Source of the DNA: Promethearchaeota archaeon
GTDB taxonomy: Archaea; Asgardarchaeota; Lokiarchaeia; Sigyniarchaeales; SOKP01
Assembly (NCBI GenBank): GCA_048940645.1
Contig: JBHLOI010000076.1
Span: 1 to 14,798, forward strand
Reading direction: 5' to 3'
DNA: 14,798 nucleotides
The notes beneath the pieces were generated by a model. The model was not told the origin of the DNA. It was given only the letters and a program-made list of their open reading frames with translations, and did no database searches. This document shows positions 187 to 10,825 of the stretch, piece after piece. The first letter of the stretch is position 1, and the number at the start of each line of letters is the position of its first letter. The position numbers and the translations under genes were made by a program.

Positions 187-1278
187 TTAGAACCATTTTT
201 TCCTTTTGAAAAAATATAACATTAGAACAATAATCAATACCATTACAACAACTAGTATTGGATAGGCGAATGGATTAGAAAATTCAGGCATGTATATAAA
301 ATTCATTCCATAGAATCCTGCAAGGAATGATAATGGGATAAATATTGTTGAAATAATTGTTAAAACTTTCATTATTTCGTTCATTCTATTGCTAACGCTG
401 GAAAGATACATATCTAACATTCCAAAGATAATATCACGATAGTTTTCTAACAACTCAGTTATTCGAAAAATATGATCATAAATATCTCTCAGATAAATTT
501 GTAATTCATTTTTAATCAATTTTGATTGTTCTCTTTGAAGTTGATTAATGACCTCTCGCATGGGCCAAATTAATTTTCTGAAATCAATAGTTTTCTTTCT
601 TAACTCATAAATTGTTTGTAAAGTTTCAGGTTTGGGATTTTGTATCAAATCATCCTCAATATTCTCAATAATCTCTCCAATTGATTCTAATACAACAAAA
701 TAATTATCAATAATCACATCTATTAGAGCATAGACCAAATAATCAGGCCCCATCATTCTTACTTTTCCTTTTGGGATTGTAATTCTATCTAAAATTGGAC
801 TAAAGATTTTAGAATGTTGTTCTTGAAATGAAATAACAAAATTTTCTCCAAGAATTAAACTTATTTGTTCATTATCGAAATCTTCTTTTATGTGATCATA
901 GAATAATCTTTTAACCACAATAAAAAGAAATTCTTCATAATCTTCAAATTTGGGACGCTGATTTGGATTTAAAATATCTTCTAAAACAAGAGGATGAAGA
1001 TTAAATTGGTTGCCTAAATTTTCTATTAATGGTATGTTTGAAAATCCTGTAATTTTTATCCATCTAATAAATGATTTTTCAATATTAGTAAAATTGATTT
1101 GATCTGTTTCTAAATCTTGAATATTATATCTTTGTTCATTATAGTCTATTATAGAGATATGTGTTTCTACTTCATGTTTCTCTCCAATATATTTTAAAGT
1201 TCCAGGAGGAAGTCCAACCTTCTGCTTCTTTTTATGGGATTGAAATGTTCTCTTTAAAGGACCAATAAATTTTCTCAT
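187..1278 (-). CDS. corA: Magnesium/cobalt transporter CorA
   Basis: Motifs KVGLPPGTL, LHPLVLEDILN, QRPKFE, NRMNEIMKVLT and the CorA signature AGFYGMNF followed by MPEF, with two C-terminal TM helices. Start is ATG 1278 or TTG 1287. Confidence 0.95.
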   Translation of the reverse strand: MRKFIGPLKRTFQSHKKKQKVGLPPGTLKYIGEKHEVETHISIIDYNEQRYNIQDLETDQINFTNIEKSFIRWIKITGFSNIPLIENLGNQFNLHPLVLEDILNPNQRPKFEDYEEFLFIVVKRLFYDHIKEDFDNEQISLILGENFVISFQEQHSKIFSPILDRITIPKGKVRMMGPDYLVYALIDVIIDNYFVVLESIGEIIENIEDDLIQNPKPETLQTIYELRKKTIDFRKLIWPMREVINQLQREQSKLIKNELQIYLRDIYDHIFRITELLENYRDIIFGMLDMYLSSVSNRMNEIMKVLTIISTIFIPLSFLAGFYGMNFIYMPEFSNPFAYPILVVVMVLIIVLMLYFFKRKKWF

Positions 1279-1449
1279 ATATATCAATATATCATAAGGT
1301 TAGGATTACAAGTTGGAATATTATAAGCTGCTTTTTATTTTAAAAATTTTGGTTATATAAGAAATTATAATCTTTAATTTATCAAAAAAATATTTAAATG
1401 TGGGAAAAAATACTTAAAACTAGAAAATTCCGTGAGGTAATATTCTGAT

Positions 1450-2367
1450 ATGAAAAAAATATATAAAATCTTAATTTGGTTAGCTGGCATTGGAATTTTT
1501 TTAGGAGTTTACTTCTATTTCGGTTTTGATCAATTATTAATAAATTTAATCATTTTGAATATAATTGCGTATTTCTTAAGATCCATATTTATTGATATAA
1601 CCCAAGGAATAATTAAAAATTTATTTGCTCGTTATATAATTAGGATAATAATAAATATTGCATGGTTAGTATTACCCTTTTGGTTGATTTTCACTATTTC
1701 GCCGATTTATTTTGTAGCAATTATCTCCTTTTTAGTTGTTGCAATATCGTTAACTTTTCAGAATATCATTAACAATATCGCATCAGGAATAATGCTTCTA
1801 TCATCTGAAGGATTTGAAGCTGGTGATTTAATCGAAACAAATGGAGTCGAAGGAATTGTAAAAGAAATAACATTGAATAATCTAAAAATTGAAGATTTTG
1901 ATGGGTCCTTGACCTATATTCCAAATAAGAATGCTTTTAACTCATCAATAGTTCGTTATACTCATAAACCTCCTAAAAAAGAAATGAAGCTAGGTTTTTC
2001 AGAAGTTATTAAAAAAATTGGGGAATTTTTAACTGGTGAGACAAAACTTACTCGTTATATTAAAGTGGTTGAACTATTAAGTTCAGTAGATTCAGAAAAA
2101 CTTGAGGAACTATTAAAGCCAGTATTGGATAAGTATGAATCTATATTTGGAATAAGACCATACTTTTATGCTAATAATACTGTCAGTGGGATTACAAATC
2201 GATTAAGTATTACTATCCAAATTGTTTCTGAGGATCCAAAACTAATCTTAACCTATATTGACCCGTTTATGAAAGATCTTCTTTTTAAGATATATGATAA
2301 AGAAATAAATTATGGATGGAACCCTAATCAAAAGGACTCATCCATTGATAACTTTGAGGTGGCTTAA
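1450..2367 (+). CDS. Small-conductance mechanosensitive channel (MscS family) protein
   Basis: N-terminal TM helices, then SLTFQNIINNIASGIMLL..FEAGDLIETNGVEGIVKEITL..DGSLTYIPNK (MscS TM3 and beta domain). GAGGT lies upstream at 1434-1438. Confidence 0.85.
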   Translation: MKKIYKILIWLAGIGIFLGVYFYFGFDQLLINLIILNIIAYFLRSIFIDITQGIIKNLFARYIIRIIINIAWLVLPFWLIFTISPIYFVAIISFLVVAISLTFQNIINNIASGIMLLSSEGFEAGDLIETNGVEGIVKEITLNNLKIEDFDGSLTYIPNKNAFNSSIVRYTHKPPKKEMKLGFSEVIKKIGEFLTGETKLTRYIKVVELLSSVDSEKLEELLKPVLDKYESIFGIRPYFYANNTVSGITNRLSITIQIVSEDPKLILTYIDPFMKDLLFKIYDKEINYGWNPNQKDSSIDNFEVA

Positions 2368-2369
2368 TT

Positions 2370-3275
2370 ATAGCAATCTTTAACACAGATTTGGAAGCAT
2401 TAATCTATCTATTAATCATTGGAGTCGGTCTTTATATTATTAATAAGGTTATATCTTTAACAATTGGTAAAACTAAAAAAATCTCTTTGAAGTACAAAAT
2501 AATAATTAATTTTTCTTTTAAGATTGCTACTGTTCTTATAATAGCTTTTTTTATTATTGAAGGTTTTCCTGTTATTTCTCTAATTAATCCCACTTACACT
2601 GCGATACTCACTGGAGCAATTAGTACTGCGATTGCTTTTGCTTCAAGCGGCATTTTTGCAAATTTTATTTCAGGAATTGTTATAATGTTAGTAAGACCGT
2701 TTGAAGTTGATGATTTGGTCAAAATTGAAGGAGACAAGGGAATCATACGCGCAATAAATTTAACTAAGGTAAAATTAGAAACATTTGATAATATAATAAT
2801 TGAAAAGTCTAATGCTCAAGTCCTTTCATCAAAAATTGTAAATTATACGATTAAACTTGGCAAAAAGAAAACTTTTGAACATTTTAAAAACAAGATCTTA
2901 GCTCCTCAGGATATTGGCTTCAAAGACATATATGAGGGCGCTCCAGATTCTAAAAAGGACTTCGAAAGTAATTTAAGAAAAGCCTATGAATCATTTTCGA
3001 CTAAATACTACCCAAAGCTTTACAATTTTACCTTTAGGATGGCTTTCCCGTATAAAGGGTTTCGATTAATGATGAAAAAAGTTGCAGAACTATGTAATTT
3101 ATATAATGAAAAGAATATTTTCAAAATCAAACCACAATTCGATACTATAACTTTTAATATAAGCATCATTGTCAAATTTAGATTATTAACGTTTAATGCA
3201 CAAAAAATTTTTGATTTTCAACCAAAATTTGCTCAAGATGTTTATAACATAATTTATAGCCTTAAAAATCTATAA
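2370..3275 (+). CDS. Second MscS-family protein (start ATA 2370 proposed; TTG 2391 in the ORF track)
   Basis: AIAFASSGIFANFISGIVIMLVRPFEVDDLVKIEGDKGIIRAINL..TFDNIIIEKSN is an MscS core. It directly follows the first MscS gene, with SD GAGGTGG at 2356-2362. Confidence 0.85.
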   Translation: MAIFNTDLEALIYLLIIGVGLYIINKVISLTIGKTKKISLKYKIIINFSFKIATVLIIAFFIIEGFPVISLINPTYTAILTGAISTAIAFASSGIFANFISGIVIMLVRPFEVDDLVKIEGDKGIIRAINLTKVKLETFDNIIIEKSNAQVLSSKIVNYTIKLGKKKTFEHFKNKILAPQDIGFKDIYEGAPDSKKDFESNLRKAYESFSTKYYPKLYNFTFRMAFPYKGFRLMMKKVAELCNLYNEKNIFKIKPQFDTITFNISIIVKFRLLTFNAQKIFDFQPKFAQDVYNIIYSLKNL

Positions 3276-7377: not shown

Positions 7378-8469
7378 CTACACTATATTAATACATTGTG
7401 CTAAGCATCTCTTCACACATGCATTACAATTTATGCAGTTTTCTGGATGCCAGAAATTAACCTTTTTATCAGGTTCATTGAAAGTATAAAGATTTCTGGG
7501 ACACACTTCAATACAGACTTTACACCCAATACATTTTTCTCGATCTAATTTCAATTTTCCATATGGCTGTAAGTGATATTTACCAAATAGGAATTTCATT
7601 TGATCTTTTCCTTTTTTCCACGTCTTTTCACCTAATTCACTTTTATATATGGGTGTTAAGCCATGAAAATCTTCCATCAAAATTAAAGCTACTATTGAGG
7701 ATAAAATAATATTCCAAATTAAATAAAAAAGGTTTGGAAATACAAAAATATAGGTTAATATAATTAAAATTATAATTATAACCTCAAAAAATAATGCTTT
7801 TGGCCTTCCTGTTTTAGTTTTAATACTTGGTAGAATGATAAGGGAACCATAGATTATTAAAATCATTAATGCTGAAGAATCAAGAAATAGAAATATATCC
7901 AATAAATGTAAAAATATAGCTAAAATCCAAAAAATTAATGTAAATATGAGGAATAAGCTGAAGAAATATATATTTGCCATTTCTATTCTCTTTGATATTG
8001 TAAAATTTACTTCTCGCATTTTTTCAGTCTTTATGAAATCATTCTCTATATAATTTGAGACATCTTTAATGTATACAGGGCCAAATTGTACATCCCAACC
8101 TAACTCCTTTTTTATTATTAAAGGATCAATACCTGGAGCGCTTAATTGGGGTAGAATTAATCTCCGGTGATCAATAAGATCATTTATTCCGCTTGTTTTA
8201 ATAATTGAAATCACGGAATCTGTATTAAAATCATCTCCGCAAGCTCCACACCATACATTTATCCCTTTTGAAGGTGCTACTAATAGATAACAATCGAGTT
8301 CCTTAAGTGCTTTTAGAACTCTTTTAACTGTTAAAATAAAATTACAAGTTAAAAATACAGGACTTTTCCGATTTGGATTCCCAACTTTAATAATATCAGG
8401 TTCTATTGAAAAGCCAACCCATCTAAAAAGATATGCTCCAATTAAATTCAATGATCTTTTAATACCCAA
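7378..8469 (-). CDS. Fused HgcAB-like protein: CdhD/HgcA-type corrinoid-binding domain, TM segment and C-terminal 2x[4Fe-4S] ferredoxin
   Basis: HgcA-like motifs VGNP..SPVFLTCNF.LT, SKGINVWCGACG (cap helix), HRRLILPQLSAPG and FGPV. About 4 TM helices, then CIGCKVCIEVCP and CINCNACVKRC. TTG start lies 2 nt after the upstream stop. Confidence 0.9.
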   Translation of the reverse strand: MGIKRSLNLIGAYLFRWVGFSIEPDIIKVGNPNRKSPVFLTCNFILTVKRVLKALKELDCYLLVAPSKGINVWCGACGDDFNTDSVISIIKTSGINDLIDHRRLILPQLSAPGIDPLIIKKELGWDVQFGPVYIKDVSNYIENDFIKTEKMREVNFTISKRIEMANIYFFSLFLIFTLIFWILAIFLHLLDIFLFLDSSALMILIIYGSLIILPSIKTKTGRPKALFFEVIIIILIILTYIFVFPNLFYLIWNIILSSIVALILMEDFHGLTPIYKSELGEKTWKKGKDQMKFLFGKYHLQPYGKLKLDREKCIGCKVCIEVCPRNLYTFNEPDKKVNFWHPENCINCNACVKRCLAQCINIV

Positions 8470-8471
8470 TT

Positions 8472-9149
8472 CTATATTATCAACCCAGAGGTTTTTTTTT
8501 TCTCAATTCTTAGTAATTTTAATGTATCCAATAAGTATAATTTTTCTTCTATAATTTGAAAATTATGATCTTCCAATTTTTTTTCAAAATTTTTTAAAGG
8601 TCTCGTGGTTAATTGAGATTTTAAAAATGTTATTAACATAAGCGGTATCCTTATAAAAGAATAAATCACTTTTTTCACAAATTTCTTAGGTTTTACCTCA
8701 TCAACAAGAATAAATTCTCCATTATCCTTCAAAATTCGATAAATTTGATCTAAGCAAAAATCTTGTTCTTTCTCGTATAATTCACTAAATGTTAACATAG
8801 CACTTACCCTATCAAAAAAGTTATCTTTAAATACCTGATCCAAATTCACGATTGGCATCTTTTTAATCTTGATTTGTTCAGTTAAACCTTGATTTTTAAT
8901 ATTATTTTTAGCAACTTCTAGCATTTTTTCAGAATAGTCAATACCTATAACATCAACATTCTTTTTTGCGGCCAAAATTGCGAAAGTACCGGTGCCCATT
9001 CCGATATCTAAAAGCTTATCTCCTTCATTTAAGTAATTGGCAACAATATATTGTTTAATTTTAGGATATTTCCCTAAAGTAAGCGTTTTAATACCTTTGT
9101 TATATTTTTCAGCTTTACTTTCCAAAGATTTCATATATACATAAGACAT
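8472..9149 (-). CDS. Class I SAM methyltransferase (UbiE-like), resembling the corrinoid-protein-associated methyltransferase (CpaM-type)
   Basis: SAM motif LLDIGMGTG, GIDYSEKML and RILKDNGEF. N-terminus MSYVYMKSLES..YNKGIKTLTLG. Directly upstream of the HgcAB-like gene. ATG 9149 is preferred over TTG 9167. Confidence 0.85.
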   Translation of the reverse strand: MSYVYMKSLESKAEKYNKGIKTLTLGKYPKIKQYIVANYLNEGDKLLDIGMGTGTFAILAAKKNVDVIGIDYSEKMLEVAKNNIKNQGLTEQIKIKKMPIVNLDQVFKDNFFDRVSAMLTFSELYEKEQDFCLDQIYRILKDNGEFILVDEVKPKKFVKKVIYSFIRIPLMLITFLKSQLTTRPLKNFEKKLEDHNFQIIEEKLYLLDTLKLLRIEKKKTSGLII

Positions 9150-9302
9150 AATTAAATGTAATAGCAATTATAATTTATGATAGAGATTTTATAGCGTTTT
9201 TTCATCTATTTTCGTTTGCTATTATTCTATTCATTATAAATTTTAAGTTTTAAAATTGGACTATTGAAATTTCAAGTAGGATTATATATACCTTATCATA
9301 TA

Positions 9303-9493: not shown

Positions 9494-10825
9494 GTGGTTC
9501 GCCCTCCAACTGAAGGTAATATATGTCTCCGATGTAAAGGAGCAAGGTTATTATGTGGTAAAAAGACTTGCCCTATTCTTTTAAAGAAATCTGTCTTAAA
9601 ATCTATGGTACCATTTAAATTAGATTCTGCTATTAGAGATGTAGAGATTTTTGGCGCCAGTCCTCCTGGAGTATTTATTGGGCATTTTAATTATCCTAAT
9701 GTTTATATTGGACCTCTTGTTCCTTTTCAGGAATTTGATTTAAAATTGAATATTTCGGATAATTACATCCTTGATGCACCTGAACTTTGGTTTGGAAAAG
9801 AAATGGTCGATATTATTCGTTATAGAAGCAGTCTAGTACGCAACAATTTCAAAACAAATGTACGAGTAGGTCGCACAGGCAGAAAAAATACTCCACCTAT
9901 CAAAATTCAAAAGTTATTAGATGCCTCCCAAGAATTAGCTATGGCAGCAAGACCAGTAGATACTGAAACGAAGCTTGGAAAAATGAATTTTCGAATGTTG
10001 ATGGATAATCATGCTCCACCTATTGGACCTACTGGGATGACCGAAAAAATTGAAATCGCAGAAAACGTAAAGGTGCATCCAAAAGTAGATTATTGTGTAG
10101 CGGATACAGATCTGAAAGCTACTAACGCGATTTCTGAGTATTTATACTTCAATGGTCATGTTCCAGAATCGACAATTAGGAGGGTTTTTTCTGCAGGATT
10201 ACTCGGTCAAAAAAGTAGTAGAAGACTTGTACCAACGCGTTGGAGTATAACTGCTGTAGATGACATTATCTCGAAAGCATTAATTAAGGAAATTAAAAAA
10301 TATCCAGAAATCGATGATTTTCGAATTTTTGAAGCAACCTATTTAGATAATCATTTCAAGATTCTCCTCTTTCCCGGTAAGTTTATGTATGAAATGAACG
10401 AAGTTTGGGCTCCTAATACGTTATGGAATGTTTCTCTTAATGGAAGTAATCGCAGTTTGAAACCTCAGATAATGACTGATTTCGAATTTTACCGAGGGAG
10501 AAAAAACTATGCGAGCAACATAACTGGTGCCTATTATGCTGCCCGAAAATCGATTTGCGAATATCTTTACAATATTAAGCGACAAGCAAGGGTCTTAATT
10601 TTTAGAGAAGTTTCTGGAGGTTATGTTGTGCCTCTTGGTGTTTGGGTTATAAGAGAGACATGTAGAAATGCTATGTATACCAGTGAACCAATCATTCTGG
10701 ATAACTTTAATGATGCGATTACCAAAATGGCGGAAGGATTCATGGTAGATTTCAAATATTGGAAAAACAGTAGTAAATTAATAAATTTCATCAAAAAGCA
10801 GAGATCCATATATGAGTATTTATAG
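9494..10825 (+). CDS. nreA: Nre family archaeal DNA repair protein (PCNA-interacting)
   Basis: N-terminal CLRCKG.RLLCGKKTCP Zn motif, GASPPGVFIG..YPNV, RRLVPTRWSITAVD, GAYYAAR, PLGVWVIRE and C-terminal PIP-like QRSIYEYL. Confidence 0.92.
   Translation: MVRPPTEGNICLRCKGARLLCGKKTCPILLKKSVLKSMVPFKLDSAIRDVEIFGASPPGVFIGHFNYPNVYIGPLVPFQEFDLKLNISDNYILDAPELWFGKEMVDIIRYRSSLVRNNFKTNVRVGRTGRKNTPPIKIQKLLDASQELAMAARPVDTETKLGKMNFRMLMDNHAPPIGPTGMTEKIEIAENVKVHPKVDYCVADTDLKATNAISEYLYFNGHVPESTIRRVFSAGLLGQKSSRRLVPTRWSITAVDDIISKALIKEIKKYPEIDDFRIFEATYLDNHFKILLFPGKFMYEMNEVWAPNTLWNVSLNGSNRSLKPQIMTDFEFYRGRKNYASNITGAYYAARKSICEYLYNIKRQARVLIFREVSGGYVVPLGVWVIRETCRNAMYTSEPIILDNFNDAITKMAEGFMVDFKYWKNSSKLINFIKKQRSIYEYL

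Follow-up and report, generated by a model that had tools for sequence, protein, structure and literature searches.

Which reaction is carried out by two neighbouring genes that encode a methyltransferase of a class dependent on S-adenosylmethionine (SAM) and a fused relative of HgcA and HgcB, the proteins of mercury methylation? This question is raised by a contig of 14,798 nt from a Promethearchaeota archaeon (JBHLOI010000076.1 of assembly GCA_048940645.1), which was analyzed in its full length and is called the window in the following. On its minus strand the window carries cpaM, encoding the corrinoid protein-associated methyltransferase CpaM, and directly downstream the gene of an HgcAB-like fusion protein. 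An earlier, sequence-only reading had described a self-contained two-gene unit whose members are separated by 2 nt and belong to gene families noted before: a class I SAM methyltransferase upstream and, downstream, a single polypeptide distinct from canonical HgcAB that comprises a corrinoid domain, a transmembrane part and a ferredoxin with two [4Fe-4S] clusters. This description was borne out in all of these points by the results given below. Our survey supports that the two genes are one functional unit with strict genetic coupling. As its function we propose an obligate two-component, membrane-anchored relay that passes methyl groups from SAM via cobalt to an acceptor, a reading to which we assign a probability of roughly 55%.

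The coupling was followed through 79 loci with one genome per species, 53 of them archaeal (Asgard, Bathyarchaeia, Hadarchaeota, Baldrarchaeota) and 26 bacterial (Desulfobacterota, Calditrichia, Bacteroidota, Spirochaetes, Planctomycetes, Nitrospirae and others). Enough upstream DNA for an assessment was present in 75 loci, the other four being cut by a contig end, and in all 75, archaeal and bacterial alike, a CpaM homologue was found directly upstream on the same strand. The two genes are separate in 54 loci and joined in frame into single open reading frames (ORFs) of 548–647 aa in 21; such in-frame fusions arose at least three times on the tree of the HgcA domain. Where the genes are not fused, their spacing ranges from −4 (an ATGA overlap) to a few tens of nucleotides. 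Furthermore, the subclades of the HgcA-domain tree recur group by group in the tree of CpaM. We also searched for CpaM near 11 canonical hgcA loci of Desulfobacterales and found it absent in all of them. All-versus-all clustering of 1830 ORFs from the surroundings of the pair yielded no third conserved gene, in agreement with a self-contained unit; the larger clusters consisted of antisense ORFs or of Asgard-only neighbours (PEMT-like, F420H2-quinone-reductase-like, a ZIP transporter and an ABC ATPase).

CpaM matches the Pfam family Methyltransf_31 (E 4e-20), contains the motif LLDIGMGTG and passes the NCBIfam model of its namesake family NF043040 with 242.7 bits (cut-off 180). Residues G50, G52, T53 and D71, which belong to motif I of the class I SAM fold, are invariant in the family alignment. 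An AlphaFold2 (AF2) model with a predicted local distance difference test score (pLDDT) of 86.5 displays a Rossmann fold, in which a long hydrophobic helix at 157–178 is modelled with less confidence. Judging from the class I fold and motif I, CpaM probably binds SAM. A fold search of the PDB returned generic class I methyltransferases only and gave no clue to the substrate; the nearest fold was that of the quinone C-methylase Coq5 (4obw, TMq 0.72). In the alignment of 50 CpaM sequences no conserved Cys was found, which makes an ArsM-type direct metalloid site in CpaM unlikely, and the protein fails the ArsM model (41.8 bits, cut-off 263). The weak similarity to UbiE/MenG and Coq5 could be taken to mean that CpaM is an independent UbiE/MenG-type enzyme whose adjacency reflects nothing but co-regulation. 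However, CpaM scores far below the cut-offs of the UbiE/MenG models (66.8 versus 216 and 64.9 versus 158.35 bits), and the adjacency in 75 of 75 loci, the 21 in-frame fusions across two domains of life and the matched trees leave this explanation hardly credible.

The HgcAB-like protein passes its own model NF043039 with 370.9 bits (cut-off 285) over profile positions 5–349 of 350; for both members of the pair the scores are far beyond chance. The models of its canonical counterparts are failed, HgcA_corrinoid (NF040863) with 169.4 against 275 bits and HgcB (NF040864) with 47.3 against 99 bits, as is that of the large subunit of the corrinoid iron-sulfur protein (CFeSP; AcsC/CdhE), where only the last 123 profile positions match (74.9 bits, cut-off 306). 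The nearest relatives, at 76% identity, are annotated by NCBI as 'HgcAB-like fusion protein [Promethearchaeota archaeon]'. The AF2 model (pLDDT 93.5, predicted template-modelling score 0.87) consists of an N-terminal alpha/beta domain, four transmembrane helices and a small C-terminal domain.

The N-terminal domain gives a CdhD-type Pfam match at residues 22–132 (E 1.5e-15) and is found by phmmer against residues 318–440 of 2h9a chain A (E 3.7e-10). The cap helix reads NVWCGACGDDF, with a helix at 72–77 in the model. Among 50 family members C74 is invariant and C77 at least 90% conserved. In the alignment with the Carboxydothermus CFeSP (2h9a), C74 falls on Thr374, where the cap faces cobalt, and Cys74 is thereby placed at the predicted cobalt-facing site. 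The transmembrane helices span residues 158–186, 192–215, 221–243 and 247–266 in the model, in agreement with hydropathy, and Lys/Arg-rich loops lie at 150–165, 213–228 and 264–300. Because of the four helices and the positive loops, both soluble domains are predicted to lie on the same, cytoplasmic, side of the membrane. The C-terminal domain carries the two Cys clusters C313/316/319/323 and C345/348/351/355, of which C313, C319, C345, C348 and C351 are invariant and C316, C323 and C355 at least 90% conserved across the 50 members; in a set of 14 members these eight residues are invariant together with C74 and C77. An extra Cys359 is present in archaeal members only, and the protein ends four residues after it, so that the C-terminal Cys-Cys tail is absent. 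From these features the protein is expected to bind both a corrinoid and Fe-S clusters.

We predicted the complex of CpaM and the HgcAB-like protein with SAM included. Three runs gave ipSAE values of 0.60, 0.60 and 0.64, the best control 0.00; the runs shared at least 63% of their contacts, and the pLDDT of the partners was at least 79. The mark set for ipSAE is reached by 58 of 80 solved complexes and by 2 of 110 mismatched pairs, but at values up to 0.60 it is reached by only seven of the 80 solved complexes, together with both mismatches that passed. The prediction thus faintly suggests a physical complex. In the PDB, neither a comparable solved complex nor a solved HgcA was found.

How could such a pair work? 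CpaM would bind SAM and methylate a Co(I) corrinoid that is held, with Cys74 as ligand, by the N-terminal domain of the HgcAB-like protein. From the CH3-Co(III) formed in this way, the methyl group would move on to an electrophile that serves as acceptor at the membrane face, and the C-terminal two-cluster ferredoxin domain would re-reduce cobalt to Co(I). From established cobalamin chemistry, thiolate-ligated methylcobalamin should be suited to transfer to soft metal or metalloid cations, which makes such a cation the most plausible acceptor, although probably not mercury and, for the window copy, probably not arsenic either. In which direction the methyl group flows, what the ferredoxin does and which acceptor is served are inferred here. 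When canonical HgcAB was studied in purified form, its methyl group came from SAM and travelled via methylcob(III)alamin ligated by a Cys thiolate, the ferredoxin providing the electrons (PMC11588087). Because SAM is the proven donor of this sister enzyme, loading of the cobalt from SAM by CpaM gains in plausibility.

Several observations weigh against the proposed relay. Canonical HgcAB takes the SAM methyl group without any methyltransferase, so that CpaM may not be needed for loading (PMC11588087). As the sequence-only reading had stated, Pyrococcus furiosus and Methanococcoides methylutens, which carry fused HgcAB, made no methylmercury (PMC4646819, PMC5893877). A literature search for the biochemistry yielded no match for 'corrinoid protein-associated methyltransferase', and 'CpaM' returned unrelated acronyms only. 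A clue to the acceptor was sought in the genomic context of the window copy and none was found there, and the complex prediction passes only weakly. Finally, the module is patchily distributed, since 58 of 301 Asgard genomes score above the cut-off of NF043039 and 8 of 27 genomes of the same genus contain a match to this model; the module is therefore accessory.

Cobalamin methyltransferases need reductive reactivation, and methionine synthase (MetH) uses SAM for this purpose. CpaM and the ferredoxin could accordingly serve a MetH-like repair in which one electron and one SAM methyl group rescue Co(II), the bulk of the methyl groups flowing between other partners, for example in the demethylation of a methylated compound or metalloid. 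Reductive reactivation of cobalamin enzymes is discussed for the sister system (PMC11588087), the fusion and co-evolution of CpaM fit this explanation as well as they fit the relay, and methyl donors other than SAM could be at work. However, no conserved second methyltransferase gene of the MT1/MT2 type lies beside the pair, SAM is the stoichiometric donor in HgcAB, and the fold of the MetH activation domain differs from the class I fold of CpaM. On balance we consider a role in reactivation unlikely.

The same set of domains and the same cap-helix Cys as in HgcAB raise the question whether the module is a true, divergent mercury methylase, and negative culture assays leave catalysis possible, as Podar et al. 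note. Apart from the two cultured carriers without methylmercury, the scores below the HgcA and HgcB cut-offs, the position outside the canonical clade (support 100), the deviating cap helix and the missing C-terminal Cys pair of HgcB speak against it. Furthermore, one Desulfobacteraceae genome (L096/L106, L102/L079) encodes a canonical hgcA (462 bits, with hgcB adjoining) in addition to a CpaM::HgcAB-like triple fusion of 589 aa; as both are kept in one genome, they appear not to be redundant, which suggests different jobs. Given this genome and the carriers that made no methylmercury, mercury is an unlikely acceptor, and we regard a mercury methylase as very improbable.

Arsenic deserves attention owing to a paralogous system on contig 57 of the same genome (locus L095:5773-11583), which lies inside an ArsR/ACR3/ArsC operon. 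There, a divergent ArsR gene is followed by a DUF166-like gene, ACR3 (274.7 bits, just under the cut-off of 282.8), a CpaM::HgcA-like fusion of 554 aa with the cap helix NVWCAARGSNFG, an HgcB-like ferredoxin of 104 aa with a Cys-rich GCGC...CNCG tail, two small proteins (a 90-aa CxC protein and an 81-aa protein) and a thioredoxin-type ArsC. Of 30 Lokiarchaeal loci of this paralogue, 20 have ACR3 directly upstream, five have only ArsR in the vicinity and five have neither. The order of ArsR, ACR3, fusion and HgcB recurs in Promethearchaeum syntrophicum MK-D1, which carries a window-type pair as well. We therefore looked at whether the window-type family shares this context: a tblastn search with ArsR, ACR3 and ArsC of contig 57 against the 79 window-type loci returned only ArsC in L083 and ArsR in L093/L094. 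Because ars genes almost never adjoin window-type loci, an arsenic context was rejected for this family, and the link of the paralogue cannot be transferred to the window copy, which has no ars neighbours. The source genome also encodes a canonical ArsM on contig 6 (7006–7872, L164; NF008823, 356 bits, cut-off 263), so the HgcA-like system of the ars operon does not simply replace ArsM.

Cobalamin and two [4Fe-4S] clusters are also the cofactor set of reductive dehalogenases, and according to a 2026 preprint expressed HgcAB dechlorinates CCl4 (10.64898/2026.04.26.720869). The HgcAB-like protein could thus be a corrinoid/Fe-S reductase with dehalogenase or QueG chemistry, CpaM methylating its product or an unrelated membrane compound; the proximity of the CpaM fold to the quinone C-methylase Coq5 would fit. 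The preprint does not treat the fused family, though, the corrinoid domain is of the methyl-carrier type of CFeSP and not of the RdhA type, and a reductase role alone leaves an obligatory, repeatedly fused SAM methyltransferase unexplained. This explanation appears improbable to us.

Trees of the corrinoid and transmembrane part fall into three groups: canonical HgcA, the HgcAB-like fusions, and Asgard CpaM::HgcA proteins with a separate ferredoxin gene. Canonical HgcA forms a clade with support 100/100 that does not include the window protein; the latter belongs to the fusion group (99/98) and, within it, to the Asgard subclade (support 100). The cap helices follow this division, with NVWCAAGKGTFG in canonical HgcA, NVWC(A/G)(A/S)CG in the fusions and NVWCAARG in Asgard CpaM::HgcA, and the window protein does not match the canonical pattern N(V/I)WCA(A/G)GK. 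Some HgcA-like proteins of the fusion clade have no ferredoxin domain (281–305 aa; L093:7229-8879 and L094:2088-3577 from Nitrospirae, L091 and L163). In all four of these loci cpaM is still the next gene upstream; in L093/L094 it is itself preceded by an ArsR-family gene.

The sequence-only reading had suggested that the pair reflects the ancestral role of hgc genes. In a maximum-likelihood tree rooted on CdhE, canonical HgcA stands beside part of the CpaM::HgcA group (94/86), and CpaM-linked forms occur on both sides of the root, which hints in this direction. However, a tree that holds all CpaM-linked forms together was not rejected by the approximately unbiased test (p 0.413, reduced set). 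A tentative and rather doubtful extension would be that the link to CpaM is the original state of the whole HgcA family: the first HgcA would have had a SAM methyltransferase of its own as partner or as fused domain, the HgcA of mercury methylation, descended from such a form, would have lost this enzyme and kept SAM as donor, and the window system and its ars-operon paralogue would serve different electrophilic metal or metalloid acceptors.

With respect to known systems, the window pair is an ordinary copy of a module that is already catalogued. Both families and their association are curated by NCBI, and a fused HgcAB clade including Asgard members has been described (10.1101/2022.11.21.517362). 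This NF043039/NF043040 module, the 'fused HgcAB' of Podar et al. 2015, Gilmour et al. 2018 and Lin et al. 2023 with representatives in P. furiosus, M. methylutens and Asgard archaea, is the closest known system. Domain order, two-Cys cap helix, gene order and tight spacing are the same, and we found no difference of substance; the TTG start and 2-nt spacer of the window copy are less common among relatives than the ATGA overlap. Canonical HgcA/HgcB (NF040863/NF040864; Pseudodesulfovibrio mercurii ND132) shares the CFeSP-type corrinoid domain, the cap Cys, the transmembrane domain and the two-cluster ferredoxin, and the methyl source is probably SAM in both, proven for HgcAB only. In the window type, by contrast, the fused ferredoxin lacks the C-terminal Cys pair, the sequence of the cap helix is different, and CpaM is obligatory.

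The Asgard CpaM::HgcA plus HgcB systems of contig 57 and MK-D1 are built from the same three modules with the same cap Cys, and their CpaM domain is the closest outgroup of the window CpaM. Their breakpoints differ, however, as here the methyltransferase is the fused part and the ferredoxin, which carries a Cys-rich tail, stands alone, and they lie in an ars context in MK-D1 and in 25 of the 30 Lokiarchaeal loci. The corrinoid domain is also homologous to that of CFeSP of the Wood–Ljungdahl pathway (AcsC/CdhE; PDB 2h9a, 4djd), which together with its methyltransferase MeTr follows the same logic: the corrinoid carrier receives its methyl group from a methyltransferase and depends on a low-potential Fe-S reductant. 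In contrast to the window protein, CFeSP is soluble, has a Thr in place of the cap Cys, an N-terminal cluster and a TIM barrel, and its loader is a TIM-barrel enzyme acting on methyl-tetrahydrofolate, whereas CpaM is a class I SAM enzyme. The source genome has its own CdhE elsewhere.

At the level of the DNA, the pair consists of co-directional minus-strand ORFs at 8472–9167 and 7378–8469 with cpaM upstream (Table 1). The cpaM frame is open from a TTG at 9167 and ends with TAG at 8472–8474. Its likely start is the ATG at 9149, since more than 40 relatives begin with MSYVYMK; the sequence-only reading had placed the end of the unit at this position, which is a better start than 9167. The junction reads ...ATA TAG AA TTG GGT..., that is a stop codon, the 2-nt spacer and a TTG start matched in the alignment by the Met of relatives. 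Near the 3′ end of cpaM, ten A follow one another at 8492–8501 (minus strand), and a −1 shift at this run would read into the frame of the HgcAB-like gene and yield a triple fusion of ∼590 aa, like the 21 natural fusions. We rejected fusion by slippage, as the set-up is present in only 4 of 48 relatives with a frame offset varying between 0, 1 and 2; the run probably just results from Lys codons in DNA that is rich in AT. The G+C content of the window is ∼25–36% in 1-kb windows. The source genome comprises 3.8 Mb in 126 contigs and is 89.6% complete, and the closest protein relatives are annotated as Promethearchaeota, that is Lokiarchaeia-type Asgard archaea.

Table 1. Positions of the gene pair, its predicted domains and further genes in the window
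Feature	Position	Strand	Remarks
cpaM	8472-9149	minus	class I SAM-dependent methyltransferase, 225 aa, NF043040 match
Spacer between cpaM stop and HgcAB-like TTG start	8470-8471	minus	2 nt, read from sequence
HgcAB-like fusion protein gene	7378-8469	minus	363 aa, NF043039 match
Corrinoid-binding domain (predicted)	8020-8427	minus	residues ~15-150; homologous to CFeSP large subunit C-terminal domain
Cap helix INVWCGACGDDF with Cys74 and Cys77	8227-8262	minus	residues 70-81
Membrane domain, four transmembrane helices	7672-7998	minus	residues 158-266
HgcB-like 2x[4Fe-4S] ferredoxin domain (predicted)	7381-7557	minus	residues 305-363; Fer4 family matches
CorA Mg/Co transporter	187-1287		308.9 bits
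Two tandem MscS-like channel genes	1450-3275
NreA-like DNA repair gene	9494-10825		divergent from cpaM across a 344-nt AT-rich spacer

No hint at the function came from the neighbours in the window (CorA, two MscS-like genes, a gamma-carbonic anhydrase-like gene, a Nif3-like gene and NreA). In about 9–11 other Asgard loci (L029-L037, L044, L053) a 212-aa F420H2-quinone-reductase-like (split barrel) gene follows on the same strand, 40–230 nt downstream of the HgcAB-like gene, and PEMT-like membrane methyltransferases and a ZIP transporter recur near Asgard pairs; these genes are all absent from the window.

The value of these results lies in the family-wide statistics, to which the window locus adds a further ordinary copy. 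What the HgcAB family natively does is an old question, and we know of no benefit that a cell draws from mercury methylation. This question can be approached directly through the CpaM-coupled sister family: the predicted SAM-binding part of the module is a protein of its own and easy to express, canonical HgcAB has by now been proven to use SAM as donor, no further conserved partner is required by the pair, and the cultured MK-D1 carries both the stand-alone module and its ars-operon paralogue.

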